Part shown: in pieces, positions 884 through 27,883 of the stretch | Layout: the number at the start of each line of letters is the position of its first letter | Numbering within the stretch: the first letter of the stretch is position 1 | Origin: Escherichia coli | GTDB lineage: Bacteria; Pseudomonadota; Gammaproteobacteria; Enterobacterales; Enterobacteriaceae | Length of the DNA stretch: 64,000 bases | Direction: 5' to 3' (one strand) | Assembly (NCBI RefSeq): GCF_030013595.1 | Contig: NZ_CP122768.1 | The notes under the pieces: model-generated | Seen by the model: only the letters and a program-made list of their open reading frames with translations | The model's database searches: none | What the model was told of the DNA's origin: nothing | Translations under genes and position numbers: made by a program

Positions 884-1233
884 CTATTATCAATAATGGA
901 AAACAATAAAAATTTAATTATTTCTCTTAATGCTTGCGGTCTAGTTATTCTACCTTGCATTTTTTTACATTGTATTAAACCACTTACAACACCGTTATGG
1001 TATAGCACGCAGTCGCGTCCTCTTTCAGAAACTCCTTGCATTAAAGATATTGAGGATATATTTTTATGCTTTCCATCTTCAATTTCGTTCTTTACTAACA
1101 AATAACATAGCAACTCAAATTCTCGATCACCTAATTCTGAAAAGGGAAGCAATCCGATACCAGAATCTATAGTCCATGGTCTATATCCTGATTGAGCCTC
1201 GATATTAATTTGTTCGTCACTGATTTTTTTCAC
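808..1233 (-). CDS. hypothetical protein with PD-(D/E)xK-like motif (GRD...16 aa...IQCK)
   Basis: 141-aa ORF, GTG start at 1231-1233 with AAGGAG 6 nt upstream; AT-rich; motif recognised by eye only. Confidence 0.45.
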   Translation of the reverse strand: MKKISDEQINIEAQSGYRPWTIDSGIGLLPFSELGDREFELLCYLLVKNEIEDGKHKNISSISLMQGVSERGRDCVLYHNGVVSGLIQCKKMQGRITRPQALREIIKFLLFSIIDNSCFPLLIVSNISCMYQMTSLKLQTH

Positions 1234-1248
1234 TTAAATCTCCTTCTA

Positions 1249-1277
1249 ATCTTATTGACCTACTCCCTACATTGTAA
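1249..1277 (-). promoter_or_regulatory. putative sigma70 promoter (TTACAA-17-TAAGAT) for the 808..1233 ORF
   Basis: -35/-10 hexamers with 17-bp spacer read on minus strand just upstream of the RBS. Confidence 0.3.
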
Positions 1278-1548
1278 CAGGGGATGATGATAAGGTGTAT
1301 CTTTCGAGCTATAAGCACGATAAATAAGTGATTAAAAATGACTCTTTAAACTATTTTAATTTAAAAAATTAATTGTTAGTTCTAATTATGGTATGAGGGC
1401 ATTTTCGGCATAGTTCTAACCATATACTTTGGTAAAAATGACTGTTACGGAACAGACCATAGTAATGCCTGCTATTGGCACGGAGCGGGCCGCCTGAGCG
1501 CCGTGGGGTCTGCAAACGGTAAGCATACCGATAACTATACGCTTGGCC

Positions 1549-1968
1549 TTAGTAACTTTTGCTCCCCTCAATAAATCCGCCATCTTTTATCGGACTGCAA
1601 TGTCCTTCTTCATCAATCAGTTGCTCGTCTTTCAGGTAGGTATATCGATAGATAATTGAGCCATTATCCATCTCACCATTGGTTCGTTTCATTAGGAGAG
1701 TAAAATGTAACGGGCTGTCCCTATATCGAGCTATTCCATGAATATTGGCAAGTACCTCATATTGACGCTCAGGTGATAACCCTTTAAATACATCGAGATA
1801 TCCATGGAATGTTCCATAGAGTGAAGAAGTGTAGATCAGTCGCTGCTCTGGACCAGTAACTTTAAGAGTAATTTGTTCACCCGTATTACAGGTTAGCTTG
1901 GCGGGAAATGTCTCAGCCTGAGCAGAAGAAATAGTCAAGCTTAAAATTATCAGGTAGCAATATTTCAT
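1549..1968 (-). CDS. small secreted/periplasmic protein of unknown function
   Basis: ATG at 1966-1968 gives 139 aa with N-terminal signal peptide MKYCYLIILSLTISSAQA; two Cys in mature part; longer track ORF has an implausible N-extension. Confidence 0.5.
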   Translation of the reverse strand: MKYCYLIILSLTISSAQAETFPAKLTCNTGEQITLKVTGPEQRLIYTSSLYGTFHGYLDVFKGLSPERQYEVLANIHGIARYRDSPLHFTLLMKRTNGEMDNGSIIYRYTYLKDEQLIDEEGHCSPIKDGGFIEGSKSY

Positions 1969-2250
1969 GTGATTAGAATGTCCAAAACTAACATGTATAC
2001 TCGGGATTCTATAACTAGTTGGATGTAGACCCAAGATGTATTGGACTATTCTTCGGTTGTAGTTGGTCAAATCATATATTTTATGTCAGCAATGTCTACT
2101 TTTGGCACATAGCAGACCAGAGACACTGGCGTAAAGCCATGGAGGATCGGTGGGAGGAGGTAAAAATCCTCTCATGCAAAAAATACGCAAAATCGATAAC
2201 AGTTGGAAATCATTCAATACTCGCACTATCGGAAGTTCACCAGCCAGTCG

Positions 2251-2298
2251 TAGCACGTTCTTGCATATGACGTGGCTACGGGTTTCGAGACCGACCCG
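2251..2298. repeat. degenerate direct copy (~85%) of the pin 3' end plus its downstream hairpin
   Basis: Aligns base-by-base with 3272..3320; contains imperfect dyad GTAGCACG..CGTGGCTAC. Confidence 0.5.
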
Positions 2299-2376
2299 AT
2301 CATCAAACGAAACATAAAATTAGCTCACATTATGAGGAAAGGTATCTTTTTGCGCTATGTAAATTCAAAGGGTTAG

Positions 2377-3246
<870 letters not shown>

Positions 3247-3271
3247 GTCTTTAAGTGATAAGCATAAACCG

Positions 3272-3320
3272 CAGCACGATCTTGCATACGACGTGCTACG
3301 GTTTCATTTATCTCCGACCG
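3272..3320. terminator. hairpin between convergent GIY-YIG gene and pin (likely bidirectional terminator); partner of repeat at 2251..2298
   Basis: Dyad AGCACG-13 nt-CGTGCT followed by GGTTTCATTT; overlaps last pin codons. Confidence 0.45.
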
Positions 3321-3894
3321 GAAACTTCTTATACAAAGTCGATACACCCACATCGTAGATAATCGCCACCTTCTGGCGAGGAGTTCCTGCTGCAATTAAT
3401 CTTCCGGCTTGTGCCCATTGTTCTGGTGTAAGTTTGGGACGACGTCCACCAATTCGTCCCTGTGCGCGAGCAGCTTCCAGTCCAGCTTTTGTTCGTTCAA
3501 CAATCAGTTCACGCTCCATTTCAGCCAGGGCACCCATCACATGAAAGAAAAAGCGTCCCATTGGTGTGCTGGTATCAATTGAATCCGTCAGACTATGAAA
3601 GTTGATGCCTCGTTCGCGCAACTCCTCCACCAACACGACAAGATGCCGCATACTACGCCCCAGCCGATCCAGCTTCCAGACAACCAGAGTGTCACCTGCC
3701 GATAATGTCCTGAGCAGTTTTTTCAGTCCCGGCCTTTCGGACTTTGTGCCGCTTATCTTGTCTTCAAAAATCAGCTCGCATCCTGCACAGTTCAGCGCAT
3801 TACGTTGTAGATCTGTGTTCTGGTCATTTGTTGATACGCGTACATAGCCAATAAGCATGGTAGATCCCCCTGACAAAAGCAGGAATGATGCCAT
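3304..3894 (-). CDS. pin: DNA invertase Pin (Gin/Hin/Cin serine recombinase family)
   Basis: 196-aa ORF begins MLIGYVRVSTNDQNTDLQRNAL, near-identical to recalled e14 Pin. Confidence 0.95.
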   Translation of the reverse strand: MASFLLLSGGSTMLIGYVRVSTNDQNTDLQRNALNCAGCELIFEDKISGTKSERPGLKKLLRTLSAGDTLVVWKLDRLGRSMRHLVVLVEELRERGINFHSLTDSIDTSTPMGRFFFHVMGALAEMERELIVERTKAGLEAARAQGRIGGRRPKLTPEQWAQAGRLIAAGTPRQKVAIIYDVGVSTLYKKFPVGDK

Positions 3895-3912
3895 TTGCTC
3901 GTTATTTCTGCA

Positions 3913-3938
3913 TTTTCATAAACGTTGGTTTGGGAGAA
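3913..3938. repeat. gix/pix-like inversion crossover site (pin-proximal)
   Basis: TTTTCATAAACGTTGGTTTGGGAGAA; reverse complement matches 5774..5799 at ~20/26 and fits the AAACC..GGTTT core of Gin/Hin sites. Confidence 0.6.
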
Positions 3939-4283
3939 GCGGCAAAGAGGAATGTGGGGACAGGAGAAAATCAGGTACCGGATATGAACAGCTTTGGTAA
4001 CTCATTGACCGCCAATGGATACCAGAAATTACCTGGGGGGATGATTATTCAATGGGGGAGTTTTTCTGTCTCACCAACCGGAGGAAGTGTTGGAACAGTT
4101 GATATAACATTACCTGTAGCTTTCCCTGCTGCTTGTCGTTCGGTAAACGCTCTTATTTCAACTAATGATCCTTCTGCCCGTTCTGTGGGCTTTGATATTG
4201 GAAGTACCAACAGAACTAAAATCAGATTTACTTACACTTCTGCTACAACAAATTCAATTTACTGGATGGCTGTGGGGTATTAA
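3939..4283 (+). CDS. alternative tail-fibre C-terminal segment (Sv'-like), silent in this orientation
   Basis: In-frame coding begins at the crossover site; followed by a tail-fibre-assembly gene; upstream part of track ORF 3885.. spans the recombination site. Confidence 0.6.
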   Translation, partial: AAKRNVGTGENQVPDMNSFGNSLTANGYQKLPGGMIIQWGSFSVSPTGGSVGTVDITLPVAFPAACRSVNALISTNDPSARSVGFDIGSTNRTKIRFTYTSATTNSIYWMAVGY

Positions 4284-4285
4284 CT

Positions 4286-4717
4286 ATGGAAAAGACATAT
4301 TATTTTAATCCCTCTGATTCGGGATTTTATATTTCACCAGATAGCCAAACCATTCCTGAGAACGCTACGAAAATAAACTTTACTATTTATTCTGAGTTCG
4401 CAGGAGTTGCATGGCCTGATGGTAAAATACTTGGTTCAGATAAAAATGGTTTTCCAGCATGGCAGGATGCGCCACCACTTACCAGCGAAGAATTAATCTC
4501 AATCGCTGAATCAAATAAACAGCGATTAGTTAATCAGGCCAACGAATACATGAACAGTAAACAATGGCCTGGTAAAGCGGCGATTGGTCGTCTGAAAGGT
4601 GAGGAACTGGCGCAATATAATTTGTGGCTGGATTATCTGGACGCACTGGAACTGGTCGATACTTCCAGTGCGCCAGATATTGAATGGCCTACTCCTCCGG
4701 CAGTTCAGGCCAGATGA
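4286..4717 (+). CDS. tail fibre assembly protein (alternative, U'-like)
   Basis: 143 aa; C-terminal [12 protein letters not shown] motif typical of Tfa proteins; inside invertible segment. Confidence 0.75.
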   Translation: MEKTYYFNPSDSGFYISPDSQTIPENATKINFTIYSEFAGVAWPDGKILGSDKNGFPAWQDAPPLTSEELISIAESNKQRLVNQANEYMNSKQWPGKAAIGRLKGEELAQYNLWLDYLDALELVDTSSAPDIEWPTPPAVQAR

Positions 4718-5294
4718 CATCCGGCGCGGTACTGGTATCTGTTGCCGTCACCGCGTCAATGTAATCCAGCACAGTGTTAAGTCGGGTGGTCTCTGCCTGC
4801 ATCAGCTTCCGCCCGGCCTGCAATTTCAGTTGAATCAGACTAATGGAAGCCATTGCAGTATCAATCAGTGACTGACGTTGTGCTTCTGCCGCGTCTACTG
4901 CGGCGCTATGCTGTGTCTCAGTATCCGTTACCCATTTCTCACCATCCCATTTATCGTATGGCGTTAACGGGGCGATAGTGGTTGTTTTTTCGGGGTAATC
5001 ACCCGGAGTTGTGATTTCTTTGGCGTCTCCCGTTTCGGTGTTATAGACGATTTCACCGCGATGGTCTGGTACATATTCCCATGAGTTAAAATCTGCAGAG
5101 CGGCAGATTGCATAACCAGCTTTGTAGGTGCCTGGAGCATCTAAACAGGAATATGCCGGAATGCCGACACCAACAGCAAGATATTCAGTTGAAGCTGAAA
5201 TATACTCCCGACTCATGACGTCAAAGTTATAAACAGTAATTTCTCCTGCCATAGTGGCAATTAATTCACTGTTTAATTCTGCGTTATTCATCAT
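4689..5294 (-). CDS. tail fibre assembly protein (expressed orientation, U-like)
   Basis: 201 aa; C-terminal [15 protein letters not shown]; directly downstream of tail fibre gene. Confidence 0.8.
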
Positions 5295-6076
5295 GCGGCC
5301 CTCACAATATAATTAAAGGCGATGTTACGTGGACGATTTTCATTTGCTGTTGGAACAACATTTGCCGCCGAGAAGTGAACATCTTGTCGGATTTTTCGGT
5401 CATTAGCGTATGTCATAGACACATTGATGTTATTCCGGACTGAGGTACCTCCGTAAAAAGCTCCACTCACACTTTGAACATCGACAATTGCATTAATTTC
5501 GCTGTTTACGCGCAACTGACCAAAACCGCCAGTAATGTTTCGAATAGCATCTCCTTGCGATGAAAGCAGAGTTCGCCCACTATCCACACCACGTTCATCA
5601 TCCCAGCCACGAATAAACTCACCGCGTAAATCAGGCAATTTATTTGTCGGGTAAGACTTTGCCAGTTCCGGGTATTCTTCAGCAGAAAAAGCCGCACCAT
5701 TGCATTTCAGCCAGCCTGTTGGTGGAGTGGCTGAAGGCCACGGAACAGGCACACCAACGGGTAATGCCGAACCTTCTCCCAAACCAAGGTTTTCGAGAGC
5801 TGTTTTCACCGTGCCATCCGATTTGATATCGCCAAACGGATTCTTGCGGCTTAACAGCAGCGCACGAAGCGCGGTAAGCAGCTGGTCATGCCGCCCCTTC
5901 TCCAGGCTGGCACCGGATGCCTCCACAACGCTGCAAAGCTCCTCCTGCAACATGTCAAAGTAGTCATCATCCAGATCGGTGGCAGGCGTGCCGGTCTGGG
6001 GGTTACCACGGGTAAAACCGTTCTTACCCGCGCCGAACTTATCCTTCTGCGCGGTTTTCGTGTCTATACGATGCAT
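5291..6076 (-). CDS. tail fibre protein (constant N-part fused to variable C-part)
   Basis: 261 aa; contains second crossover site about 92 codons in; position after Mu gp48-like gene. Confidence 0.8.
5774..5799. repeat. gix/pix-like inversion crossover site (inside tail fibre gene)
   Basis: TTCTCCCAAACCAAGGTTTTCGAGAG, inverted repeat of 3913..3938. Confidence 0.6.
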
Positions 6077-6079
6077 GGA

Positions 6080-6664
6080 TTACTCCGGATATTTAAAAAT
6101 CACATAGGTATGCGACGGGCAGAGTTTGTTAAGAACACACTCGACAACGGTGTCCCCCCAGAAGCGCAGCGCGGAATCACAGGGATCGCCACATGTCATC
6201 CAGGTGGTGTTGGTGGCGGCTGGCATGTTGACCTGCCAGTAATACCGCCATTCAGGCGCATTCACCGCGTCAGTACAGGCCGATGAGCAGGTGAACGTGC
6301 TTTTGTCGTATCGCGTGATGTTGGCATCCAGTCTGCCCAGGGCAGCAAGCTGTGCAAGATAAAAATTCTCGTTGATGCCGCCCGCCAGGTTAACCTTCGC
6401 ATCCAGCCGTTGCTGACGCTGGCGAAGGGTCTGTGTCCCTGTAGGAATACATTCATCCGGCAGGCCGCACAGACGCTCCCAGCGATTTATCAGTTCGGTG
6501 GTGGTGCGCGGATCCAGCTCCCGCATCAGGGCATCCGCACGCTGATGAACGCGGGTTAATGACGGTGCCGCACCGGCAATCGCCGGATCGCTGGCTGACC
6601 ACGCCGGACCGGGCGGCAACAGTGCTGACAACAGACGGATGTAATCATCGTTTGTCACGTCCAT
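6080..6664 (-). CDS. Mu gp48-like tail protein (YmfQ/DUF2313 family)
   Basis: 194 aa; resembles e14 YmfQ-type protein; position between baseplate J and tail fibre. Confidence 0.75.
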
Positions 6665-7713
6665 GAAATCGCCCCCAGAACCGCCAGTTCATTTTTTGCA
6701 ATGGTGATATTGTCCGCCGGTGCAAGCAACTGATGGCTGTATTCCCCGTTCGCACCGGAAATCGCTTCACTGATACGTGACACCTTCAGTTCTCCCTGCG
6801 GATAACCATCACGCAGCAGGAACGAACGCAACTCCGCGGTGATGGCAGCCCGTATTTCCGGTGTGTCCGGCGTAACACGGATATGAAAATCCACCGTATG
6901 TGCCACCGGCCTGAACACATACAAATCAGAGCCTGCCACCGGGGCCAGTGGCCCGATATGTTGTCTTGCCGCCGTTTCCGTTGATTCTTCCGGAATGGGA
7001 TTAATCAGGTCACTGCTGGCAATCATCACACCGACAGTCCCCGTTCCCATCCAGTGTCGGTATGTCCATGCGCGGGTAATGCCAGGCACTTCTTTAGCCC
7101 AGACGACATAGTCCCCGTCAGCCCCGCCCTGCGGCGTCCAGTAATACCGCTCAATGACGCGGGCGCGCCACGTTTCCAGCTCTTCAGTATCAAATCCGCC
7201 TGTCAGGGTGTCAGCCACACCGGAAGACGGCAGACCATTCACCGGCGTGACCAGGATTAATGCCGTACCGTCGTCAGCGTTACCGACCGCACCTGCACTT
7301 GAGCAGGCGATCGGCACGCGCAGGACACCACCGGAGCTGATTGCATCGTCAGTTGTCGTGTACTGCACCAGGTCATCGCGCTGAATAACACTCCCGGCAG
7401 TCACCTTCAGGCCATCGCTGACACCTTCCCAGCGCATATACCCGCTGGCAACCGTGGCTCCCTTGCGCGGACACCGTTTCATCGCAGCATGTCGCGCCAA
7501 CCAGGACTCATCGCACAGGTCAGGCAGCATATTCATTGCCAGATAATCGATGTAACCGTAGACCGTATGCAGCGCCGCCGCATACACCTTTGCCCGCACG
7601 TCTTCATCCATGCGCCGGAGCGTGTCGCTGACGTCCAGCCTGGCGAATAAATCGTTACGGAGCATACTGATATTTTCTGCCAGCGTCGGGCGCTGAAATT
7701 CACTGTCCGCCAT
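6655..7713 (-). CDS. baseplate J-like protein (Mu gp47-like)
   Basis: 352 aa; family resemblance and synteny. Confidence 0.8.
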
Positions 7714-8128
7714 GCGTTATCGCACTCCACAGATCATCAAAAGAAATCATTACTGGTCCATCACGACGCCAGAGGGTGATACTGTTACCCAGCTCATTAA
7801 TCCCGGTGCGGCGGATATCCAGATCAATACGGGACACCACGCCGTCATCAGTCATCCATTGCAGGCATTCGCGGATATATCCCCTTACCGTCTGCACCAG
7901 CTGATTGGTCAGTTTGCTGCGCTGAAGCAGCCACAGTCGGGAGCCGTAACGGTCATTCTGTACCGCAGGCCAGGTATCCCCCCACCATCCCATCGGGACG
8001 TCGGCATTGTCATCAGGCTCCGCCCGCCGCCAGGTGAACAGGGAAATCACCACGGCGCGGGTCAGCGGATCCAGCGGTGCGCTGGCGCAGGTGCGTTTAC
8101 CGTTCACCGTCAGCCACAGTTCCATCAT
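7700..8128 (-). CDS. baseplate protein, GPW/gp25-like (Mu gp46-like)
   Basis: 142 aa; synteny in Mu-like baseplate block. Confidence 0.75.
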   Translation of the reverse strand: MMELWLTVNGKRTCASAPLDPLTRAVVISLFTWRRAEPDDNADVPMGWWGDTWPAVQNDRYGSRLWLLQRSKLTNQLVQTVRGYIRECLQWMTDDGVVSRIDLDIRRTGINELGNSITLWRRDGPVMISFDDLWSAITHGGQ

Positions 8129-8673
8129 GCCTCCATCGCTTTATCAGGTTTGTCGGTGTTACTGCCCTGACCGTTCTCTCTGTGACGATGCCCGTTATAG
8201 GCAAGCCGCATCGCTGACATGGTGGTGCCGCCGGAGTCGCACAGGTCTTTCACTTGTCCGGTCACTTCCAGATCCATTTCAAAACGTGCTTCAGTTGCAT
8301 TGCGAAACGTGATCGTTTTCCCTGCACCGTCCACCACGATCCCCTCCCGGGTCAGCGTCACAGACTGCCCCTGATCGTCATAGACAGCCACCTCACCCGT
8401 CTGCAGCCCTTTCAGGCGGTAGCGCCGGTCCGACACCGTAACAACCACCGCATGAGAACGGTCGCCATCCGGAAACAACACCACCGCTTCCGCACCGCTG
8501 TTTGCCCTTGCGGTAAAACCGTAGGGTTCAAGATGTTCAACCCCGGCTTTGGGTTCACCGGCAATCAGGGACACATCCACGGTCTGACATTTCGTGGCGG
8601 CACTGATGCTTTTCACCACGGCCCGCCCAATCAGGCCGAGAAGTTGTCGCTGCATGGCTTCAATCGTCCTCAT
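8125..8673 (-). CDS. baseplate assembly protein V / spike (Mu gp45-like)
   Basis: 182 aa; synteny and family resemblance. Confidence 0.75.
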   Translation of the reverse strand: MRTIEAMQRQLLGLIGRAVVKSISAATKCQTVDVSLIAGEPKAGVEHLEPYGFTARANSGAEAVVLFPDGDRSHAVVVTVSDRRYRLKGLQTGEVAVYDDQGQSVTLTREGIVVDGAGKTITFRNATEARFEMDLEVTGQVKDLCDSGGTTMSAMRLAYNGHRHRENGQGSNTDKPDKAMEA

Positions 8674-9752
8674 CAGAACGGGTCCTCCTGTACTCTGGCT
8701 TTTTTCTTTTTCCGCGCGCCGGGGGCTTCGGGTCCAGGCAGATAAGCATCAGGCGGGCCGACACGGATTTCCGTCAGGGTGCCGTTCTGGTCCTGAGTAA
8801 ACGTGACTTCCGAGACAAGCAGTTCGGTATTGTCGAAACCACAGACCGGATCGAAGACAATCACCCGCTGGTTGGGCTGCCACAGCGTACCGTTACCCTG
8901 TCGCCAGCCCTGCACCACATAGGTGGTTTCATCCGTCCGCGCCGCCCGTTGCCGGGCTTCAAAGTCAGCACGCGCAATACAGCCTGCCCCCGTAGCCTGC
9001 CCTGTCTGCCTGATATACATCGGACGGTAACGGGCAATAAATGCGTCTTCTGTGCGGGCCCGCAGCGCGGTGGTGGTGGCCTCACCGAAATCATCGTCGT
9101 TTCCGGCACGCTGCCCCGCCACCTGGTAAACAGAAAACCGCTCCCGGATACTCTTCTCCGTATCGCAGGAAAGGATGTTTTCCCCGAGTACCAGCGCGGT
9201 ATGTGCCCGCGTTGAGCCAATACCGCCAATCACCAGCCTGCCGTGCGAGTCGTCGTAAGCCAGCGCCTGCTGCTGACCGAGTATTTTGTTGATCACCTCG
9301 ATCACCGTTTCACCGTGATCAGGCTGGACATCAGGAATAACACCCGACGGCGCACCGCTGTTCACCACCTCAATGCCGAAAGGCGCAGCAAGCGCCTGCG
9401 CAATCTGTACCAGCGATCGTCCGTTAAACTGTGTCGGTTCGGCTGCACAGTCAATCAGGTCAGCGGTCAGACTACGTCCGGCAATACCGGTGCTGACCGA
9501 ACGGGCATCGTAACGAACGGGCGTCGCCTCCACCCAGCCAGTGATCACCAGCTCATCACCAATCAGCACTTCCACTTTTGAACCGTTTTTAATGCGCGGC
9601 TGAAGCGTGGTGATACCCTCATCTCCCGGCCACTGGCGGGTGATCTCCACACTGAAATCCCGCGCCAGTCGTTCAACACCGGCACCGATGCGCACCGATG
9701 TCCAGCCATTCCACTCCCGGCCATTTACCCGTAGCGTGACGTTATCGTTCAT
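8673..9752 (-). CDS. Mu gpP-like tail protein (baseplate hub)
   Basis: 359 aa; synteny after DNA circulation protein. Confidence 0.8.
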   Translation of the reverse strand: MNDNVTLRVNGREWNGWTSVRIGAGVERLARDFSVEITRQWPGDEGITTLQPRIKNGSKVEVLIGDELVITGWVEATPVRYDARSVSTGIAGRSLTADLIDCAAEPTQFNGRSLVQIAQALAAPFGIEVVNSGAPSGVIPDVQPDHGETVIEVINKILGQQQALAYDDSHGRLVIGGIGSTRAHTALVLGENILSCDTEKSIRERFSVYQVAGQRAGNDDDFGEATTTALRARTEDAFIARYRPMYIRQTGQATGAGCIARADFEARQRAARTDETTYVVQGWRQGNGTLWQPNQRVIVFDPVCGFDNTELLVSEVTFTQDQNGTLTEIRVGPPDAYLPGPEAPGARKKKKARVQEDPF

Positions 9753-19910: not shown

Positions 19911-21129
19911 TGGCGTTATCCTTCTGCTTACCGGCTTTACTGCCATCGGAGGGCTTCGTGGTCATGTTCATCGGTGTGAGATAGACATCACCACCGGGAC
20001 GCGGATTCATATCTTCCAGGTCGCGGCAGTCATTGGGAGAGTAAATTCCCCAGTTGATCCCGGTGGCGTAGGCTTCAAAACGGGACTTCATATCCCCGCG
20101 CAGTAACGCCCCGGCGTTAAATTTGGCGTAATAAACACCCTGCTTACTTTTTCGTACCAGTCCGGTGTTGATCCGCTGCTCAATGCGGGTCAGATACGGC
20201 ACCAGTGAATAGTTGATAAATCCGAGCCCCAGCTCTTCGATATTGTTGAAGGTGGCGCGATCGGTGTTCTGCACCATGTGCAATGGCACACGGAACAGAC
20301 GACAAATTTCTTCAAGCTGAAACTTGCGGGTTTCCAGGAACTGGCTGTCCTCTGCGTTCAACGCCATCGACTTCCAGTCCAGCCCCATCTCAAGGATCAT
20401 CGGGCGGTGAGCATTGCCAAGCCCGGTGTGACGCTCCTCAAAATCTTTCTTCAGGCGCTCATAAGCCTGATCCGACAGCGTCTGCTCTGTACGCAACACA
20501 CCCGACGTCACCGCGCCATTGCTGAACAGTCTGGCCCCGTGCTCTTCGGTCGCTGCCGCCAGCGATATTGCCTCGCGGGCATAGGCGATGGGATTCAGCC
20601 CCACCAGTCCGTCCAGCGTCAGCGTGCGCACATGCCAGATATCCTCCTGGCTCAGTACATCCGTGGAGCCATCCGGGAATGTGACCTGATAGATCGGCTC
20701 CCAGCTACTGTTAAGCTTCGGTACCACACAGCCGGGATCGACGGGCAGCAGTTCAGCCACTTCGCCAAATGCTTTCACTTTGTAGGCGTAAAAGTTTCCC
20801 CGCAGGCACAGACAGGTGACCACCAGCTCCCAGAACTCCTGCGGCGTCATATAGTCATTGGGATGCGTGGAGATCAGCTTATGCAGACGTTCGCCAGTGG
20901 CTCTCTGCTTCAGGCTGCCGTTCAGGTGATACAGGTTGCAGGGCAACATCCCGACCGACTCCGCCAGCACCCTGACACAGGAAAAAACCGCCGTCAGTCG
21001 CATGGCCCGCTGGCTGCTGATCTGCTTTCCGGTATAGGTGTCGTAGGACAACCCGATAGCATCCGCCAGCTCTGCTGGCGTGGTCACCGGTGCGTCACTT
21101 TTTCGTTGAAATAATCCCGAAAAGAACAC
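19888..21129 (-). CDS. portal protein
   Basis: 413 aa; between terminase and protease. Confidence 0.9.
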   Translation of the reverse strand: MFFSGLFQRKSDAPVTTPAELADAIGLSYDTYTGKQISSQRAMRLTAVFSCVRVLAESVGMLPCNLYHLNGSLKQRATGERLHKLISTHPNDYMTPQEFWELVVTCLCLRGNFYAYKVKAFGEVAELLPVDPGCVVPKLNSSWEPIYQVTFPDGSTDVLSQEDIWHVRTLTLDGLVGLNPIAYAREAISLAAATEEHGARLFSNGAVTSGVLRTEQTLSDQAYERLKKDFEERHTGLGNAHRPMILEMGLDWKSMALNAEDSQFLETRKFQLEEICRLFRVPLHMVQNTDRATFNNIEELGLGFINYSLVPYLTRIEQRINTGLVRKSKQGVYYAKFNAGALLRGDMKSRFEAYATGINWGIYSPNDCRDLEDMNPRPGGDVYLTPMNMTTKPSDGSKAGKQKDNANADETTS

Positions 21130-21311
21130 TATTTACCTCCGCCGACAGACGACTGTGTACGGTCGAGATATCGCGCCACCAGCCACGACCAGAACAGGCA
21201 CAACGCCCCGGCAACAACAAACCCCGCCGGGGGATAAATCAGCCAGGCACCATACGCCAGCAAAAGCGCCCCCAGCACGCCCACCAGAGGCGCGAGAATC
21301 AGCATGATCAT
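21129..21311 (-). CDS. small two-helix membrane protein
   Basis: 60 aa, two hydrophobic segments; between terminase large subunit and portal. Confidence 0.35.
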
Positions 21312-21322
21312 AATTACCTCAG

Positions 21323-23056
21323 TTAAAGCGAGCGGATCCCATAGGACTCAATGTGGTCAGACAACGTGTCTTCTTTCTCGTACAGCATGGCTCTGCCAAC
21401 CGCCATAATCAGCGCAACTGCACCATCGATTTTGTTTTCCGCCTGCTCTTTGACGGGCTTCACCACATCATCGTTACCCGGAATGGTTTTGCCGACCACG
21501 TTGCCGATACACCAGGTCATGATGGGATTGCCATCATGATGAAAGCGCCCCGATTCAATTGCCGCTTCCAGCTCTTTCATCGGGTCGGACATGTTGGTGT
21601 AGTTCTGAATGATAGTGATGGGGTTCAGGTCTTCATCAGCCAGGTCATGTGACAGCCCGGTCGCCCCGAAGGGGTCGATGGGTGACTCACTGACCGGGCT
21701 GATTTTGTTCGCCGCTTTGGCCTCCTCGAGGATGTAGCGATAATCCACCTCCGCACCATCGGTAACGGTCAGAACGCCCATTACCACCCATTTCTGAAAG
21801 CGTTCGGCTGTCCGTCGATCTTCATTTTTCTCGACACTGTACACCGTGTCATACGGTACCCAGAAACGCGGGGCCACACTGTAGTAATGCGTTTTACCGT
21901 CAATCTCGCGGGTATAAAGTCGCGCCATGCTGTTCATATCCAGCTTACGCGCCAGGTCAAAGGCCAGAATGCACGGCTGCCCCTCGAACTGCTCAAGGGT
22001 CAGTGATTTATCCTCGCAGCTCTGCCAGCTCACCAGGTTGAAATACGCCGAACGCGCCGACACCCAGATATTGAGGTGCTTTGTTTTAAAGACGTTTGCC
22101 AGACGGGCGTTATTTTTCGCACGCTGCTGCTGACTTAACAAAAATTCGCGATAAACCGACACGCCAATATTCGGGTTAGCTTTTTCCAGCACCTGCGGGT
22201 CGGTCCAGTCATCGCCTTCGTCAACGGTATAGATGATCCCGAACAGTTCATCGTTGGGTACCGACCCGTTGAGCATCTCGATAACTTCCCGCCGCTTGTC
22301 GTAGCACGGCCCCTCAATGTTGTACCCGGCAGTAGTAATGGCCCACATCAGTGGCTGACGTCGCGCCCCCATCCCGGTAAGCATCGTGGTGTAAAGCGCA
22401 TCGGTGGCGTGCTCGTGATATTCATCCACCACCGCACAGTGGGGTGATGATCCATCACCGGGGTTACCGATCAGCGGTTCAAACCGCGCGCCATCCTCCG
22501 GACGGTTCATGTTTGAGGCGTTAACCTCAATCCCGAACGCTTCCGTCAGCATGGGCGTGCGTTTACACATCAGTCGCGCCGGGCGAAAGACTTCCCACGC
22601 CTGTTTCTCTGTCGTGGCACCGGAATACACTTCCGCGCCAAACTCGTTATCACAGGCAAAACAATACAGGGCAACACCGGCAGAGATTGCTGATTTGCCG
22701 TTCTTACGGGGGATTTCGGTATACACCTCCCGGAAGCGGCGCAACCGGGTGCCTTTATTGACCCAGCCAAACGCACAGCAGATCACAAAGAGCTGCCACG
22801 GCTCCAGCGTGATGGGCATCCTCTTGAATGCCCACTCACCCTTGGTGTGCGGCAACAGCTGAATAAATTTGGCGGCCCGTTCAGCCAGGTCCTTGTCGAA
22901 GCGGTAACGAAACGACTTACTTTTTTCCGCCATCAGGTCATCAAGATGGCGCTGGCAGGCCTGAATCACAAACTGGCAGGCCACAATCTTTCCGCGAACG
23001 ACATCCCGGGCATACTGATTGGCAGCATTTACGTTGGGGTAAGATTTCCGGCTCAT
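21323..23056 (-). CDS. terminase large subunit
   Basis: 577 aa; ATPase-nuclease family resemblance. Confidence 0.9.
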
Positions 23057-23556
23057 GATTCGATGATTTTCAGAAACGGGTTAGTAGCTTTCTTCTGCCC
23101 CGCCAGGCCAATCAGACGCTGGCGGCTGCTGGGGTCGAGTCCGAGCATTGCCCCCGTGCTGCTCATCTCGGACTCCTGTTCTTTTTTGGCGGTCAGCTCA
23201 GGATTTTTGACCATACCGCCCATTGCACCGGTGATGGTGTTGCCCTGTCTGGCAATATTTTTCACGGCACGTCGCCAGAACTCATAGGCCACACACCACC
23301 GCTCAAGCACCGCGAGGTCAGTCACGCACAGCAGGCCCTGACCGCAAAGTTCTTTAGTTGTCAGTTGCCACATGATCGTGGCGAGAGGGAGATCTTCTTC
23401 AGCGAACCACTCCGGTGGCTCAACACCTTTGATGGGCGTAAAAACAGGTTCATCTTTATTCAGGGCTCGCTTGCCGGGGTTTCCGGCCAGCGCCTTGCGC
23501 GCCGTTGGCTTGGGGCGACGCCCGGAACGCCCCGCCGTTCCAGCCATATGCGGCAC
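23053..23556 (-). CDS. terminase small subunit (P27 family)
   Basis: 167 aa; 4-nt overlap with large subunit. Confidence 0.8.
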
Positions 23557-23672
23557 TCCTGGTTAAATTTCATTTTTCGCGGGTATAAAAAAACGATGGG
23601 GCGGGCAGTCCGGAAGACGTCAGGTCACAGAGATTTGACCCGCCCCTCCCCTCAGACAGTTGAGAATTATTA

Positions 23673-24023
23673 TCACTTTAGCCGTTCACGGGCCGTCTTC
23701 GCCTTATGGCACGGCCAGCACAGGCTCTGCAGATTACTGTCTGCATCGGTGCCGCCATGCGCTTTAGGGATGATGTGGTCAACGGTTTTCGCCTCACGCA
23801 CCACACCAGCACGCAGACATAACTGACACAGGCCTTTGTCACGCTTCAATATGCGCGCGCGGATACTGTCCCACTTCGAACCGTAGCCGCGCTGATGACG
23901 GGATTGCCCCGGCTTGTATTGTTTCCAGCCTTCGTTTTTGTGGCTTTCGCAGTAGCCTGACGGGTCTGTAGTGGTATTACGGCAGCCGCGAACGCGGCAG
24001 GCTTTTGGGATTCGTGATGGCAT
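23673..24023 (-). CDS. HNH endonuclease (packaging-associated)
   Basis: HNH motif DHIIPKAHGGTDADSNLQSLCWPCHKAKT plus Cys-rich zinc ribbon; ATG 24021-24023 with GGAG 5 nt upstream. Confidence 0.85.
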   Translation of the reverse strand: MPSRIPKACRVRGCRNTTTDPSGYCESHKNEGWKQYKPGQSRHQRGYGSKWDSIRARILKRDKGLCQLCLRAGVVREAKTVDHIIPKAHGGTDADSNLQSLCWPCHKAKTARERLK

Positions 24024-24149
24024 ATGTACTCCAATGAAGAAGCCACCGACATAGCCTCCTCCATTCATCGTGAAACTATTTTCATCTACGCAGTCATGAA
24101 TTCTTTGTAGAGTTGTGATCAATACAACTCACTAATGGAGAGGCTTGTC

Positions 24150-24171
24150 CAACACGTTGGACAAGTTTCCT
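24150..24171. repeat. perfect 10-bp inverted repeat with 2-bp spacer (CTTGTCCAAC-AC-GTTGGACAAG), then T-rich tract
   Basis: Read directly; could be an operator or an orphan + strand terminator. Confidence 0.4.
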
Positions 24172-24246
24172 GTTTGATTTACTGGACACTATAGAAGGAC
24201 AGAATGCCTTCCTCACTCGAATAACATTAATTAAGGAGGTTCAACA

Positions 24247-25575
24247 CTGATGAATCCCCTAATGATTTTGGTAAAAATCATTAAGTTAAGGTGGATACAC
24301 ATCTTGTCATATGATCAAATGGTTTCGCGAAAAATCAATAATCAGACAACAAGATGTGCGAACTCGATATTTTACACGACTCTCTTTACCAATTCTGCCC
24401 CGAATTACACTTAAAACGACTCAACAGCTTAACGTTGGCTTGCCACGCATTACTTGACTGTAAAACTCTCACTCTTACCGAACTTGGCCGTAACCTGCCA
24501 ACCAAAGCGAGAACAAAACATAACATCAAACGAATCGACCGATTGTTAGGTAATCGTCACCTCCACAAAGAGCGACTCGCTGTATACCGTTGGCATGCTA
24601 GCTTTATCTGTTCGGGCAATACGATGCCCATTGTACTTGTTGACTGGTCTGATATTCGTGAGCAAAAACGACTTATGGTATTGCGAGCTTCAGTCGCACT
24701 ACACGGTCGTTCTGTTACTCTTTATGAGAAAGCGTTCCCGCTTTCAGAGCAATGTTCAAAGAAAGCTCATGACCAATTTCTAGCCGACCTTGCGAGCATT
24801 CTACCGAGTAACACCACACCGCTCATTGTCAGTGATGCTGGCTTTAAAGTGCCATGGTATAAATCCGTTGAGAAGCTGGGTTGGTACTGGTTAAGTCGAG
24901 TAAGAGGAAAAGTACAATATGCAGACCTAGGAGCGGAAAACTGGAAACCTATCAGCAACTTACATGATATGTCATCTAGTCACTCAAAGACTTTAGGCTA
25001 TAAGAGGCTGACTAAAAGCAATCCAATCTCATGCCAAATTCTATTGTATAAATCTCGCTCTAAAGGCCGAAAAAATCAGCGCTCGACACGGACTCATTGT
25101 CACCACCCGTCACCTAAAATCTACTCAGCGTCGGCAAAGGAGCCATGGGTTCTAGCAACTAACTTACCTGTTGAAATTCGAACACCCAAACAACTTGTTA
25201 ATATCTATTCGAAGCGAATGCAGATTGAAGAAACCTTCCGAGACTTGAAAAGTCCTGCCTACGGACTAGGCCTACGCCATAGCCGAACGAGCAGCTCAGA
25301 GCGTTTTGATATCATGCTGCTAATCGCCCTGATGCTTCAACTAACATGTTGGCTTGCGGGCGTTCATGCTCAGAAACAAGGTTGGGACAAGCACTTCCAG
25401 GCTAACACAGTCAGAAATCGAAACGTACTCTCAACAGTTCGCTTAGGCATGGAAGTTTTGCGGCATTCTGGCTACACAATAACAAGGGAAGACTTACTCG
25501 TGGCTGCAACCCTACTAGCTCAAAATTTATTCACACATGGTTACGCTTTGGGGAAATTATGAGGGGATCTCTCAG
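24247..25575 (+). mobile_element. IS10, complete 1329-bp copy
   Basis: Outside end CTGATGAATCCCCTAATGATTTTGG at 24247, inside end CTGAGAGATCCCCTCA (reverse complement) at 25560-25575; flanks GGTTCAACA and TATTAAGCG differ, so no 9-bp duplication. Confidence 0.95.
24354..25562 (+). CDS. IS10 transposase
   Basis: 402 aa beginning MCELDILHDSLYQFCPELHLKRLNS, matches recalled IS10 transposase over its length. Confidence 0.97.
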   Translation: MCELDILHDSLYQFCPELHLKRLNSLTLACHALLDCKTLTLTELGRNLPTKARTKHNIKRIDRLLGNRHLHKERLAVYRWHASFICSGNTMPIVLVDWSDIREQKRLMVLRASVALHGRSVTLYEKAFPLSEQCSKKAHDQFLADLASILPSNTTPLIVSDAGFKVPWYKSVEKLGWYWLSRVRGKVQYADLGAENWKPISNLHDMSSSHSKTLGYKRLTKSNPISCQILLYKSRSKGRKNQRSTRTHCHHPSPKIYSASAKEPWVLATNLPVEIRTPKQLVNIYSKRMQIEETFRDLKSPAYGLGLRHSRTSSSERFDIMLLIALMLQLTCWLAGVHAQKQGWDKHFQANTVRNRNVLSTVRLGMEVLRHSGYTITREDLLVAATLLAQNLFTHGYALGKL

Positions 25576-25604
25576 TATTAAGCGTCAATGAGCGTCTGGA
25601 AAGA

Positions 25605-26519
25605 ATGAAAGGCAGGCGCTCAGACATTACGGTGACAGAATGGCTTGATAAATATATTTCTATCCAGGAGGACAGGCTGCAACATAATGAACTAAGACCC
25701 AACTCCTATCGGCAAAAAGGCAAACCCATTCGTCTTTTCCGTGAGCATTGTGGAATGCAACACCTCAAGGATATTACCGCACTTGATATTGCCGAAATAA
25801 TTGATGCTGTAAAGGCTGAAGGTCATAACAGGATGGCGCAAGTCGTGAGAATGGTGTTGATCGACGTCTTCAAAGAAGCACAACACGCAGGACATGTTCC
25901 GCCAGGATTTAACCCAGCGCAGGCAACAAAACAACCGCGAAATCGAGTAAACCGCCAAAGATTGTCACTGCCCGAATGGCAGGCAATATTTGAAAGCGTA
26001 AGCAGACGGCAGCCCTATTTAAAATGCGGCATGCTACTTGCTCTTGTTACTGGACAACGTTTAGGCGATATCTGCAATTTGAAATTCTCTGATATATGGG
26101 ACGACATGTTGCACATTACTCAGGAAAAAACCGGTTCAAAACTTGCTATTCCGCTTAACCTGAAATGCGATGCTCTGAATATTACCCTTCGTGAAGTTAT
26201 ATCTCAGTGCAGGGATGCTGTTGTTAGTAAATATCTGGTCCATTACCGTCACACTACCTCTCAAGCAAACAGAGGAGACCAGGTTTCTGCAAATACTCTG
26301 ACAACGGCTTTTAAAAAGGCCCGGGAAAAATGTGGCATAAAATGGGAGCAAGGAACTGCGCCCACATTTCATGAGCAGCGATCTCTGTCAGAACGGTTAT
26401 ATCGGGAACAGGGTCTGGATACGCAAAAGTTGTTAGGCCATAAATCCAGAAAAATGACCGACCGATACAATGATGATCGTGGTAAAGACTGGATTATCGT
26501 AGATATCAAAACAGCATAG
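25605..26519 (+). pseudogene. lambda-family tyrosine integrase lacking the N-terminal arm-binding domain
   Basis: 304 aa aligning to lambda Int from about residue 65; catalytic motifs (HxxR, LLGH, DRY) intact; frame closes at a stop inside the IS10 end. Confidence 0.8.
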
Positions 26520-26529
26520 AAAATAGCCA

Positions 26530-26565
26530 GTTTTGGGGAAGGGTTTTGGGGAAAGTTTTGGGGAA
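26530..26565 (+). promoter_or_regulatory. three direct 11-bp repeats GTTTTGGGGAA (candidate integrase arm-type sites)
   Basis: Copies at 26530, 26543, 26555 between int stop and icd stop. Confidence 0.4.
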
Positions 26566-26580
26566 GATTTTACATCATCA

Positions 26581-26609
26581 TAAAACAACGGGCGTGTTAT
26601 ACGCCCGTT
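26581..26609 (-). terminator. icd transcription terminator
   Basis: 9-bp stem AACGGGCGT/ACGCCCGTT, 5-nt loop, U-rich tail on minus strand just after icd stop. Confidence 0.6.
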
Positions 26610-26632
26610 TCAATATTTAACACATGTAGAGA

Positions 26633-27883
26633 TTACATGTTCTTGATGATTGCATCACCAAACTCGCTGCATTTCAGCAGTTTAGCACCTTCCATCAGAC
26701 GTTCGAAGTCATAGGTTACGGTCTTGGCGTTGATTGCGCCTTCCATACCTTTAACAATCAAGTCTGCGGCTTCAGTCCAGCCCATATGGCGCAGCATCAT
26801 CTCAGCGGAGAGAATAATAGAGCCTGGGTTTACTTTGTCCTGACCGGCATATTTCGGCGCAGTACCGTGGGTGGCTTCAAACAGGGCGCATTCGTCACCG
26901 ATGTTTGCGCCTGGGGCGATACCGATACCGCCGACCTGTGCAGCCAGAGCGTCAGAAATGTAGTCACCGTTCAGGTTCATACAGGCGATAACATCATATT
27001 CAGCCGGACGCAGCAGGATCTGTTGCAGGAATGCGTCAGCAATCACGTCTTTAATGACGATCTCTTTGCCGGTATTCGGGTTTTTAACTTTCAGCCACGG
27101 GCCGCCGTCGATCAGTTCACCGCCAAACTCTTCACGCGCCAGCTGGTAGCCCCAGTCTTTAAACGCGCCTTCGGTGAACTTCATGATGTTGCCTTTGTGC
27201 ACCAGGGTCACAGAGTCACGATCGTTAGCAATTGCGTATTCGATCGCTGCACGAACCAGACGTTTGGTGCCTTCTTCCGAACACGGCTTAATACCGATAC
27301 CGCAATGTTCCGGGAAGCGAATTTTCTTCACGCCCATCTCTTCACGCAGGAATTTAATCACTTTCTCGGCGTCGGCAGAGTCAGCTTTCCATTCGATACC
27401 CGCATAAATGTCTTCCGAGTTTTCACGGAAGATAACCATATCGGTCAGTTCAGGGTGTTTAACCGGGCTTGGAGTGCCCTGATAGTAACGTACCGGACGC
27501 AGGCAGATGTAGAGATCCAGTTCCTGACGCAGGGCAACGTTCAGAGAGCGAATACCGCCACCAACCGGAGTGGTCAGCGGACCTTTAATGGCAACGCGAT
27601 ATTCACGAATCAGATCAAGGGTTTCAGCAGGCAGCCAGACATCCTGACCATAAACCTGTGTGGATTTTTCACCGGTGTAAATTTCCATCCAGGAGATTTT
27701 ACGCTCGCCTTTATAGGCTTTCTCGACTGCAGCGTCGACCACTTTCAGCATGGCTGGGGTTACATCTACACCGATTCCATCACCTTCAATGTAAGGGATA
27801 ATCGGATTTTCAGGAACGTTGAGTTTGCCGTTTTGCAGGGTGATCTTCTTGCCTTGTGCCGGAACAACTACTTTACTTTCCAT
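26633..27883 (-). CDS. icd: isocitrate dehydrogenase (NADP)
   Basis: 416 aa, [45 protein letters not shown]; full-length match to recalled E. coli Icd. Confidence 0.97.

Follow-up and report, generated by a model that had tools for sequence, protein, structure and literature searches.

Does the open reading frame (ORF) squeezed between the terminase large subunit (TerL) and portal genes of this prophage encode a real small protein, or is it a chance ORF, and what would a hydrophobic peptide of 60 residues do beside the portal? The frame lies in a 64,000-nucleotide stretch of Escherichia coli DNA, the whole of which is referred to hereafter as the window. A first-pass annotation had described a 60-aa two-helix hydrophobic ORF at 21129-21311, in a 12-bp-tight gap between TerL and portal. 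The ORF was confirmed on the minus strand and has its own Shine-Dalgarno site; its spacing to the TerL stop is 11 nt, near the earlier figure. The features of the locus are as follows.

21323..23056, minus strand: TerL gene, the usual but non-obligatory upstream neighbour (Pfam TerL_ATPase and TerL_nuclease; phrog_9)
21323..21325, minus strand: TerL stop codon, TAA
21312..21322, minus strand: TerL-ymfR spacer of 11 nt, CTGAGGTAATT, which holds GAGG (read from the sequence)
21317..21320, minus strand: ymfR Shine-Dalgarno site, GAGG, inside the 11-nt spacer (read from the sequence)
21129..21311, minus strand: ymfR coding sequence, 60 codons and a TAG stop (ORF list; phrog_502 match)
21136..21140, minus strand: portal Shine-Dalgarno site, GGAGG, embedded in ymfR codons 57-59 (G-G-G)
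21127..21129, minus strand: portal GTG start, which shares 1 nt with the ymfR TAG (TAGTG), a translational-coupling junction
19888..21129, minus strand: HK97-family portal gene, the conserved downstream partner (Phage_portal PF04860, E=1.9e-108; phrog_12)

The translation matches YmfR (b1150), encoded by the cryptic prophage e14 of E. coli K-12, at every residue, and its residues 1-55 match the phrog_502 profile (E=2.5e-28). The ORF is a real prophage gene, already named and catalogued as ymfR. The window prophage is inserted at icd, the e14 attachment locus, and the K-12 copy has the same protein, slot, coupling signals and length as the window gene. In e14 the terminase and portal neighbours survive as truncated genes or pseudogenes, whereas both are intact in the window prophage. 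Of 5426 complete E. coli genomes, 1389 contain the ymfR region, named 'protein YmfR' by PGAP among the matches listed. A set of 5.8 billion proteins contained 167 YmfR homologues, and a profile search recovered 382 clusters at E<=1e-3. L37 of phiP27 and SfII_03 of SfII, both labelled 'putative integral membrane protein', the CDS Sb3 carried by the ST64B record, and gp3 of phiKO2, a further phrog_502 member, all resemble the window gene in length, coupling signals and position between TerL and portal. Annotation of the small gene is inconsistent, as it is missing from the SfV, SfIV and PY54 records. PHROG files phrog_502 under 'moron, auxiliary metabolic gene and host takeover'.

The signals around the gene are shared as well. 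The start context TAAC[T/C]GAGGT[A/C]ATT-ATG is common to SfII, phiP27, ST64B, K-12 e14, phi467, Ec bR120 and Ec HS4, and the portal start is preceded by GGAGG or GAGGG in 10 of 10 relatives. YmfR proteins in the homologue alignment end in GGK, GGE or GGD; this C-terminal GG[K/E/D] is conserved because the portal GGAGG site is embedded in codons 57-59. No promoter-like site was detected in 20800-21700. The position of ymfR and its ribosome-binding sites support a reading in which TerL, YmfR and portal would be translated serially. The G+C content of ymfR, 0.61 as compared with 0.54-0.56 in the neighbouring genes, is raised because of its Gly, Ala and Leu codons.

The frame itself was conserved in related prophages, and the first-pass annotation's choice between a small protein and a chance ORF fell to the former. 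The sense frame was open in all 10 relatives picked by flanking-DNA similarity, among which the numbers of variable sites at the three codon positions were 35, 25 and 55. Comparison of the window gene with that of Klebsiella phi6.3 gave a dS of 1.15, a dN of 0.31 and an omega of 0.27; overall, omega was about 0.17-0.4, indicating purifying selection. Among 67 distant coding sequences the median omega was 0.36, a value biased downward since these loci were found via the conserved motif, and the entropies by codon position were 0.98, 0.72 and 1.39. Outside the central motif omega was 0.54, and the short cytoplasmic tail was the least conserved segment. Residues G11, G14, G21, W23, P28, G30, G35, S42 and R/K47 were kept among proteins that are 30-45% identical, with synonymous sites saturated. 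An early scan of IMG/VR gave 80 loci, nearly all encoding an identical protein, with four distinct proteins in the close set; these loci were left out of the selection test because they had been selected on protein. Together, the open frame and the purifying selection rule out a chance ORF; ymfR is a conserved coding gene within the operon for late head morphogenesis.

The same comparisons dispose of non-coding readings of the locus, the probability of which we regard as negligible since conservation refutes them in practice. A 78-aa antisense ORF does run across the region (21090..21326, plus strand), but it is closed by two or three stops in the Klebsiella and Yersinia copies, in which the sense frame is always open, and the codon-position substitution pattern fits the sense frame. 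The SfII authors annotated an internal rho-independent terminator, corresponding to a hairpin at 21293..21266 on the minus strand; this hairpin is weak, leaning on G-U pairs and followed by four U only, and its U-run is lost in the Klebsiella copy. Termination here would, besides, be hard to reconcile with the portal and capsid genes that lie downstream. A structured RNA was rejected, the fold z-score being +0.61 and Rfam giving no match. The low synonymous divergence among E. coli-type copies had prompted the idea of constraint at the nucleotide level. Sliding-window comparison pointed instead to mosaic recent exchange: identity to phiP27 was 93-98% across ymfR and the 5' end of the portal gene, and no such island was seen against the Klebsiella or Yersinia copies.

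YmfR is strongly hydrophobic (GRAVY +1.22), with two hydrophobic stretches around YPPAG, and AlphaFold2 returned a helical hairpin (H2-25 and H27-56; mean pLDDT 77.7). The predicted segments are as follows.

Residues ~2-24: first transmembrane helix, TM1
Residues 25-30: periplasmic turn, I25-Y-P-P-A-G30
Residues ~31-46: second transmembrane helix, TM2
Residues 47-60: cytoplasmic basic tail

Across 63 homologues, lysine and arginine averaged 0.06 per sequence in the loop as compared with 2.67 in the C-terminal tail. The predicted topology is that of a hairpin in the inner membrane whose N- and C-termini face the cytoplasm, with the short YPPAG turn in the periplasm. Both helices carry conserved glycine motifs, and some versions, one of them located just ahead of a portal gene, are tandem duplications with two hairpins. 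Foldseek searches against viral models retrieved only uncharacterized small proteins (E>=0.027), and no PDB sequence was matched significantly in a profile search.

The first-pass annotation had also held that HK97-type modules usually have no gene at this place. This is true of HK97 and of Pseudomonas phage D14E, in which TerL and portal overlap directly, but not of the present lineage: of the 13 module types picked by similarity of TerL DNA, 11 carried a two-helix small ORF in the slot. The portal ORF, of the HK97 family, begins at the stop of the small ORF in 59 of 61 distinct family members, and 57 of these 59 junctions are overlaps of 1 nt (36) or 4 nt (21). Even in the distant members P0157, P0163 and P0165 the next gene is a Phage_portal or phrog_12 gene. 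Of 53 eligible distinct members, 42 have TerL as the immediate upstream gene. Mosaic phages show which neighbour the small gene travels with. SfV has a TerL 97% identical to that of the window, a portal only 29% identical and a small ORF of a different type; in phi467 the corresponding identities are 39% for TerL, 92% for YmfR and 99% for the portal. In such module exchanges the sequences show the small gene going with the portal and not with TerL. This tight linkage could also stem simply from the portal ribosome-binding site and start being embedded in the small ORF.

On these grounds we propose, with low confidence, that the YmfR hairpin may be accessory to the portal, with which it would act on the cytoplasmic side of the inner membrane. 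While the procapsid is being nucleated, the hairpin could serve as a tether or chaperone for the subunits of the portal or for its ring, as a functional analogue of T4 gp40. It would probably work as an oligomer, as the glycine motifs conserved on both helices and the tandem-duplicated versions suggest. The factor would be accessory and not universal, because HK97 and D14E lack the small gene; judged from these modules, which do without it, YmfR cannot be a general requirement of HK97-type portal function. The step from hairpin to portal factor draws on gene linkage. Against it, contact with the portal would fall to the cytoplasmic tail, which is short and the least conserved segment. T4 gene 40 is not known to adjoin the portal gene, and we know of no membrane step described for HK97-type head assembly.

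Several established identities were considered for the protein and found no support. In records ON470603, ON470584 and PQ793804 the ORF is labelled 'head-tail joining protein W'. BLASTP with lambda gpW (an approximate query sequence) gave no alignment at E<=100. Moreover, gpW is soluble but YmfR consists almost wholly of transmembrane segments, and the GRAVY value and two TM helices are incompatible with that identity; the label looks like a positional mis-annotation. YmfR has two TM helices, and its short tail, with R47, D50, R51 and K60, has only a modest net charge. A class II (two-TMD) holin, a small protein with a charged C-terminal tail, was rejected, as ymfR lies in the head module and not beside an endolysin gene, and neither YmfR nor 63 family members matched the Pfam holin families; assignment to any other known Pfam domain likewise found no support. 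A close relative in E. coli YPE10 has separate genes for a lambda-family holin, a GH24 endolysin and spanins ~3.5 kb upstream of ymfR. A moron with its own promoter and terminator is not supported either: 20800-21700 has no promoter-like site, the sole terminator-like hairpin is internal to the ORF, weak and not conserved, and ymfR is only 11 nt from TerL and overlaps the portal gene by 1 nt. Nor is its presence patchy, as that of a moron would be, given the occupancy of the slot in the sampled module types.

The broader notion of a late membrane effector outside assembly, which would act in superinfection exclusion or a block to DNA entry, in lysis timing or membrane potential, or in host takeover, is rather unlikely on our estimate. 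Effectors of this kind are typically small membrane proteins with two helices and a short basic tail, PHROG places phrog_502 in the moron and host-takeover category, and HK97 gp15, a membrane moron that mediates superinfection exclusion, would be comparable in kind. Some related modules (HK97 and D14E) do without the gene, as is usual for accessory genes, and it has stayed intact in the decayed e14 while its terminase and portal neighbours were truncated. Against this, ymfR is translationally coupled on both sides with no promoter or conserved terminator of its own, a two-helix small ORF fills the slot in 11 of the 13 module types, and the G+C content of ymfR is accounted for by its Gly, Ala and Leu codons. 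Strict co-inheritance with portal type would be unexpected for an exclusion or lysis function, relatives already possess a complete lysis cassette, and PADLOC defence models gave no family at E<=1.

The junctions themselves suggest a reading in which the ORF is a spacer for translational coupling, such that termination at the portal start sets the rate of portal synthesis and the peptide has little or no function. The portal ribosome-binding site and start embedded in its 3' end, the preponderance of 1- and 4-nt overlaps, the C-terminal GG[K/E/D] explained by GGAGG and the relaxed selection on most residues outside the central motif all fit this reading. We nonetheless judge it improbable, since an amino-acid motif has been kept at 30-45% overall identity with saturated synonymous sites, the two-helix architecture is preserved in three cross-matching PHROG families, and in HK97 and D14E a direct overlap of TerL with portal is enough for coupling, with no ORF in between. 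More improbable still is a minor virion or ejection protein at the portal vertex that inserts into the inner membrane of the recipient during DNA entry. In its favour, ymfR belongs to the head module and is inherited together with the portal, and YmfR is hydrophobic enough for membrane insertion, but a protein of 60 aa that is almost all TM helix has no soluble part for retention in the capsid, and literature searches found no virion proteomics evidence for YmfR.

Expression of the gene is documented at the RNA level. An SOS-inducing antibiotic conjugate raised the ymfR transcript (log2FC 4.52) along with the other e14 genes (PMC10012262). Literature searches found no protein-level evidence of YmfR expression. 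In the literature searched, 'ymfR' occurs only in lists of e14 deletions, in one table of transcriptome data and in one list of ASKA clones, with no functional study, and nothing relevant came up for small membrane proteins encoded between a terminase and a portal gene.

As ymfR was already catalogued, its detection is not news in itself; the point of interest is the pattern around it. A two-helix membrane protein coupled to the portal occurs in a large share of head modules of the P27/SfII/phiE125 type, in phages of Enterobacterales, Vibrio, Burkholderia, Pseudomonas and marine Gammaproteobacteria. If YmfR were a portal assembly factor, membrane-associated head initiation would not be peculiar to T4. 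If it were not, the gene would still be a cheap and well-defined target, as it encodes just 60 aa and belongs to a prophage family of E. coli K-12 that has relatives open to induction.

Beyond the YmfR family itself, sister families of small hairpins occupy this slot: phrog_7105 (SfV, EPP-1, VW-6S and QHHSV-1), phrog_4810 (Vibrio phage Her and Pseudomonas PP9W2) and gp3 of Burkholderia phiE125. Like YmfR, these proteins are of 50-68 aa, with two hydrophobic helices, glycines on both and a basic tail, and their genes sit between TerL and an HK97-family portal gene, overlapping one or both. Their profiles cross-match phrog_502 (E 1e-4 to 1e-15). They differ in lacking the YmfR-type turn motif [SA][YF]GAWL[IV]YPPAG, and the portals of the phages that carry them are only 28-58% identical to that of the window. 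Class II holins and membrane morons likewise include small inner-membrane proteins of temperate phages with an N-in/C-in two-helix topology. Unlike morons of the HK97 gp15 type, ymfR has no promoter or terminator of its own, is distributed as part of the core module and is coupled to the portal. In T4, gp40 is a viral chaperone required for the membrane-bound gp20 portal initiator (PMC9958956). The role that YmfR may share with gp40 is assembly of the portal initiator at the inner membrane, which is purely a functional analogy. By extension, and speculatively, phrog_502, phrog_7105 and phrog_4810 might form one widespread superfamily of portal-coupled membrane proteins that tether or chaperone the portal, in which case the inner membrane would be the site of procapsid nucleation in many phages of the HK97 lineage, as it is in T4 with gp40; we consider this doubtful at present.

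The small gene ymfR lies between the genes for the terminase large subunit (TerL) and the portal, on the same strand as both:

19888..21129, minus strand: HK97-family portal gene (PF04860, E=1.9e-108), downstream of ymfR
21129..21311, minus strand: ymfR, 60 codons and a TAG stop
21323..23056, minus strand: TerL gene (Pfam TerL_ATPase and TerL_nuclease), upstream of ymfR

The ORF listing and hydropathy confirmed the ORF that the first-pass annotation had placed at 21129-21311 between TerL and portal. The gap is indeed tight, measuring 11 nt instead of the 12 bp proposed; this spacer between the TerL stop and the ymfR ATG, CTGAGGTAATT, contains GAGG. The ymfR TAG overlaps the portal GTG start by 1 base (TAGTG), and the GGAGG ribosome-binding site of the portal gene is built from the last glycine codons of ymfR. 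A scan of the region revealed no promoter-like site of ymfR's own. YmfR is strongly hydrophobic (GRAVY +1.22); its two hydrophobic stretches flank Y-P-P-A-G, and a short polar basic tail follows them.

Relatives were chosen by flanking-DNA similarity, to keep the sample free of bias from the small protein: SfII, phiP27, ST64B, K-12 e14, phi467, two E. coli prophages, Klebsiella phage ST101-KPC2phi6.3 and Yersinia phage YeP1. In all of them the ymfR frame was open, and all share its start context and its stop/start overlap with the portal gene; the variable sites at codon positions 1, 2 and 3 numbered 35, 25 and 55 of 60. Comparison of the window with the Klebsiella copy gave dS=1.15, dN=0.31 and omega=0.27; omega was 0.17 between Klebsiella and another E. 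coli-type copy. Among 67 distinct distant coding sequences from IMG/VR, which were retrieved via the central motif, the median pairwise omega was 0.36 (0.54 without that motif), with column entropies of 0.98, 0.72 and 1.39 at the three codon positions. An antisense 78-aa ORF (21090..21326, plus strand) is broken by two to three stops in the copies from Klebsiella and Yersinia. The first-pass annotation had left the choice between a real small protein and a chance ORF to frame conservation and codon substitution; the open frame in all relatives, the excess of third-position variation and omega values of 0.17-0.36 decide for the former, and the probability of a chance ORF is negligible given that the frame is conserved among related prophages. 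We conclude that ymfR encodes a conserved protein and belongs to the late head operon, placed in series with TerL and portal by its tight start and stop contexts.

Non-coding readings of the region were also considered. The SfII authors' putative terminator is a hairpin inside ymfR (window 21266..21293, minus strand; GCGCCTCTGGTGGGCGTGCTGGGGGCGC then TTTTG). We rejected it as a terminator: the hairpin is weak and depends on G-U pairs, only four U follow, and the U-run is absent in the Klebsiella copy. A structured RNA was likewise rejected, the fold of the region being no better than that of shuffled sequences (z=+0.61), and Rfam gave no match for it.

The gene is already known. The window protein is identical in sequence to K-12 MG1655 YmfR (b1150), encoded in cryptic prophage e14 between a truncated terminase gene (ymfN/aaaE) and the portal fragment beeE. 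By blastn, ymfR with short flanks was present in 1389 of 5426 complete E. coli genomes, and most matching regions, among the matches listed, bore the name 'ymfR: protein YmfR'. The same ORF is recorded as phiP27 L37 and SfII SfII_03, both labelled 'putative integral membrane protein', and as CDS Sb3 in ST64B. YmfR matched PHROG family phrog_502 ('membrane protein') at E=2.5e-28 and none of the Pfam, NCBIfam or PADLOC families; by every feature tested, the window gene belongs to the YmfR/phrog_502 family. No functional study of ymfR was found in the literature searched. In K-12 the ymfR transcript is raised, together with those of the other e14 genes, by a siderophore-antibiotic conjugate that induces SOS (log2FC 4.52; PMC10012262). 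What is modestly new is the breadth and strictness of portal coupling, which yields a testable hypothesis.

A word-indexed search returned 167 homologues, almost all of them 59-61 aa long; they come from Escherichia, Shigella, Salmonella, Citrobacter, Klebsiella, Enterobacter, Yersinia, Hafnia and Buttiauxella. When 1.84 billion cluster representatives were searched with a profile, 382 clusters matched at E<=1e-3, of which 27 reached E<=1e-10, the named members including Marinobacter and Neptuniibacter. The conserved core comprises G11, G14, G21, W23, P28, G30, the invariant G35, S42 and R/K47, with the turn motif [SA][YF]GAWL[IV]YPPAG[FY]I. AlphaFold2, run on a 63-sequence alignment, modelled a hairpin of two helices (H2-25 and H27-56; mean pLDDT 77.7). 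In the turn, lysines plus arginines average 0.06 per aligned sequence, as against 2.67 in the C-terminal tail, and distant members carry basic N-terminal extensions. The positive-inside rule is well established for membrane protein topology; because of this charge distribution, YmfR is predicted to be an inner-membrane hairpin with both ends cytoplasmic and the YPPAG turn periplasmic. Tandem double hairpins of 102-122 aa also occur (family proteins P0152, P0165 and P0176; loci L185 and L187), P0165 immediately preceding a portal gene. P0176 is part of a divergent head module, beside a Peptidase_S78 prohead protease, its neighbours being unrecognised. Together with the glycine motifs, the tandem forms suggest that the hairpin works as a dimer or a larger oligomer.

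Downstream sequence was sufficient for 61 distinct family members, and in 59 of these an HK97-family portal ORF begins at the stop of the small ORF, overlapping it by 1 nt in 36 and by 4 nt in 21 of the 59. TerL lies directly upstream in 42 of 53. Phage_portal genes also follow very distant members known only from short metagenomic contigs. SfV has a TerL 97% identical to that of the window, a small ORF of a different type and a portal of 29% identity; conversely, phi467 has a TerL of 39% identity, a YmfR 92% identical and a portal 99% identical. In mosaic phages the small gene is thus inherited with the portal and not with the terminase. In both E. coli bR_120 and phi467 a junction falls exactly at the TerL stop, a different TerL type (39% aa identity) being followed by ymfR and portal of the window's type. 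Among E. coli-type copies synonymous divergence is exceptionally low (dS 0.106 against phiP27, flanks 0.8-1.4): around window 21040..21340, ymfR and roughly the first 130 nt of the portal gene are 93-98% identical to phiP27, as compared with 75-80% in the flanks. This stretch proved to be a mosaic patch of recent exchange over ymfR and the portal 5' end; comparisons with the Klebsiella and Yersinia copies revealed no such island.

The supposition that HK97-type modules usually have no gene in this slot holds for HK97 proper and fails for the present lineage. Of 13 head-module types sampled, all sharing TerL DNA similarity with the window, 11 carry a 49-68-aa two-helix ORF there: SfII/P27/ST64B, Klebsiella phi6.3, YeP1, PY54, phiKO2, SfV/EPP-1, Halomonas QHHSV-1 (frameshifted), Pseudomonas VW-6S, Burkholderia phiE125 (gp3), Vibrio phage Her and Pseudomonas PP9W2. 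These ORFs belong to phrog_502, phrog_7105 and phrog_4810, whose profiles cross-hit. In HK97 and Pseudomonas phage D14E, TerL and portal overlap directly; since these phages do without it, the small hairpin protein is accessory and not universally required for HK97-type heads.

Several records misrepresent the gene. The ORF is present and unannotated in SfV (locus L168, U82619.2, 2072..2233; encoding MKSLIADVIGLAGFGLLTCGVYLQFGMAPALILSGALLLVGALAMARRGTRAA, phrog_7105 type), PY54 (locus L178, AJ564013.1, around 2066..2260; YmfR type) and SfIV (KC814930.1, 2382..2483). In QHHSV-1 (locus L183, 2079..2266) a frameshift splits the copy into the annotated 30-aa QHH_52 and a second helix in another frame; in Her (locus L171, about 2075..2281) the annotated GTG start of Her_0062 removes the first helix, the full ORF beginning MKIAIITYLL. 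ON470603.1, ON470584.1, ON470580.1 and PQ793804.1 label the ORF 'head-tail joining protein W'. We rejected this identity, YmfR having no detectable similarity to lambda gpW. The label resembles a positional mis-annotation, probably because lambda-like phages carry the Ad1/gpW gene between terminase and portal (PMC7996906). The 1764-bp record OR844959.1 ('Enterococcus phage Efm 3-10') is assigned to a phage of Enterococcus faecium; across TerL-ymfR-portal it shares 96% identity with this E. coli/Salmonella prophage DNA, and it is probably contamination or a mislabelled fragment.

The prophage adjoins icd, the e14 attachment locus, and retains its head genes and a Mu-like contractile-tail gene region (about 800..24100). 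Its icd-proximal end is arranged as follows:

23673..24122, minus strand: HNH endonuclease gene
24354..25562: IS4-like ISVsa5-family transposase ORF, upstream of the HNH endonuclease gene
between the transposase ORF and icd: site-specific integrase ORF
26633..27883: icd

At 23673..27883 the prophage's early region is apparently absent, and the element looks like an IS-truncated e14/SfII-type prophage. Within 23053..24122 the HNH endonuclease gene directly precedes a small terminase gene of the P27 family, an arrangement typical of HNH-dependent cos-packaging modules and repeated at the locus of a distant family member (L085).

As to function, we tentatively favour an accessory, portal-linked membrane factor. 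This is the most economical hypothesis because the only invariant association of ymfR is with the portal; against it, the tail expected to face the portal is both short and variable, and the linkage could follow simply from the ORF containing the ribosome-binding site and start of the portal gene. A membrane effector expressed late, for example one for exclusion or lysis timing, is somewhat less probable. PHROG places the family in its moron category, but YmfR lacks moron-like features, its relatives have a separate lysis cassette and the linkage is portal-specific; neither its context nor profile searches point to a holin. That ymfR is a coupling ORF with an unimportant peptide is improbable, the amino-acid motif being kept while synonymous divergence is saturated, and we give still less credence to a virion or ejection protein.

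As a portal-linked factor, YmfR would anchor the portal to the cytoplasmic side of the inner membrane, or serve as its chaperone there, while the procapsid is being initiated. T4 offers a precedent, likened by function: its gp20 portal initiator is membrane-bound and requires the viral chaperone gp40 (PMC9958956), the role here proposed for YmfR.
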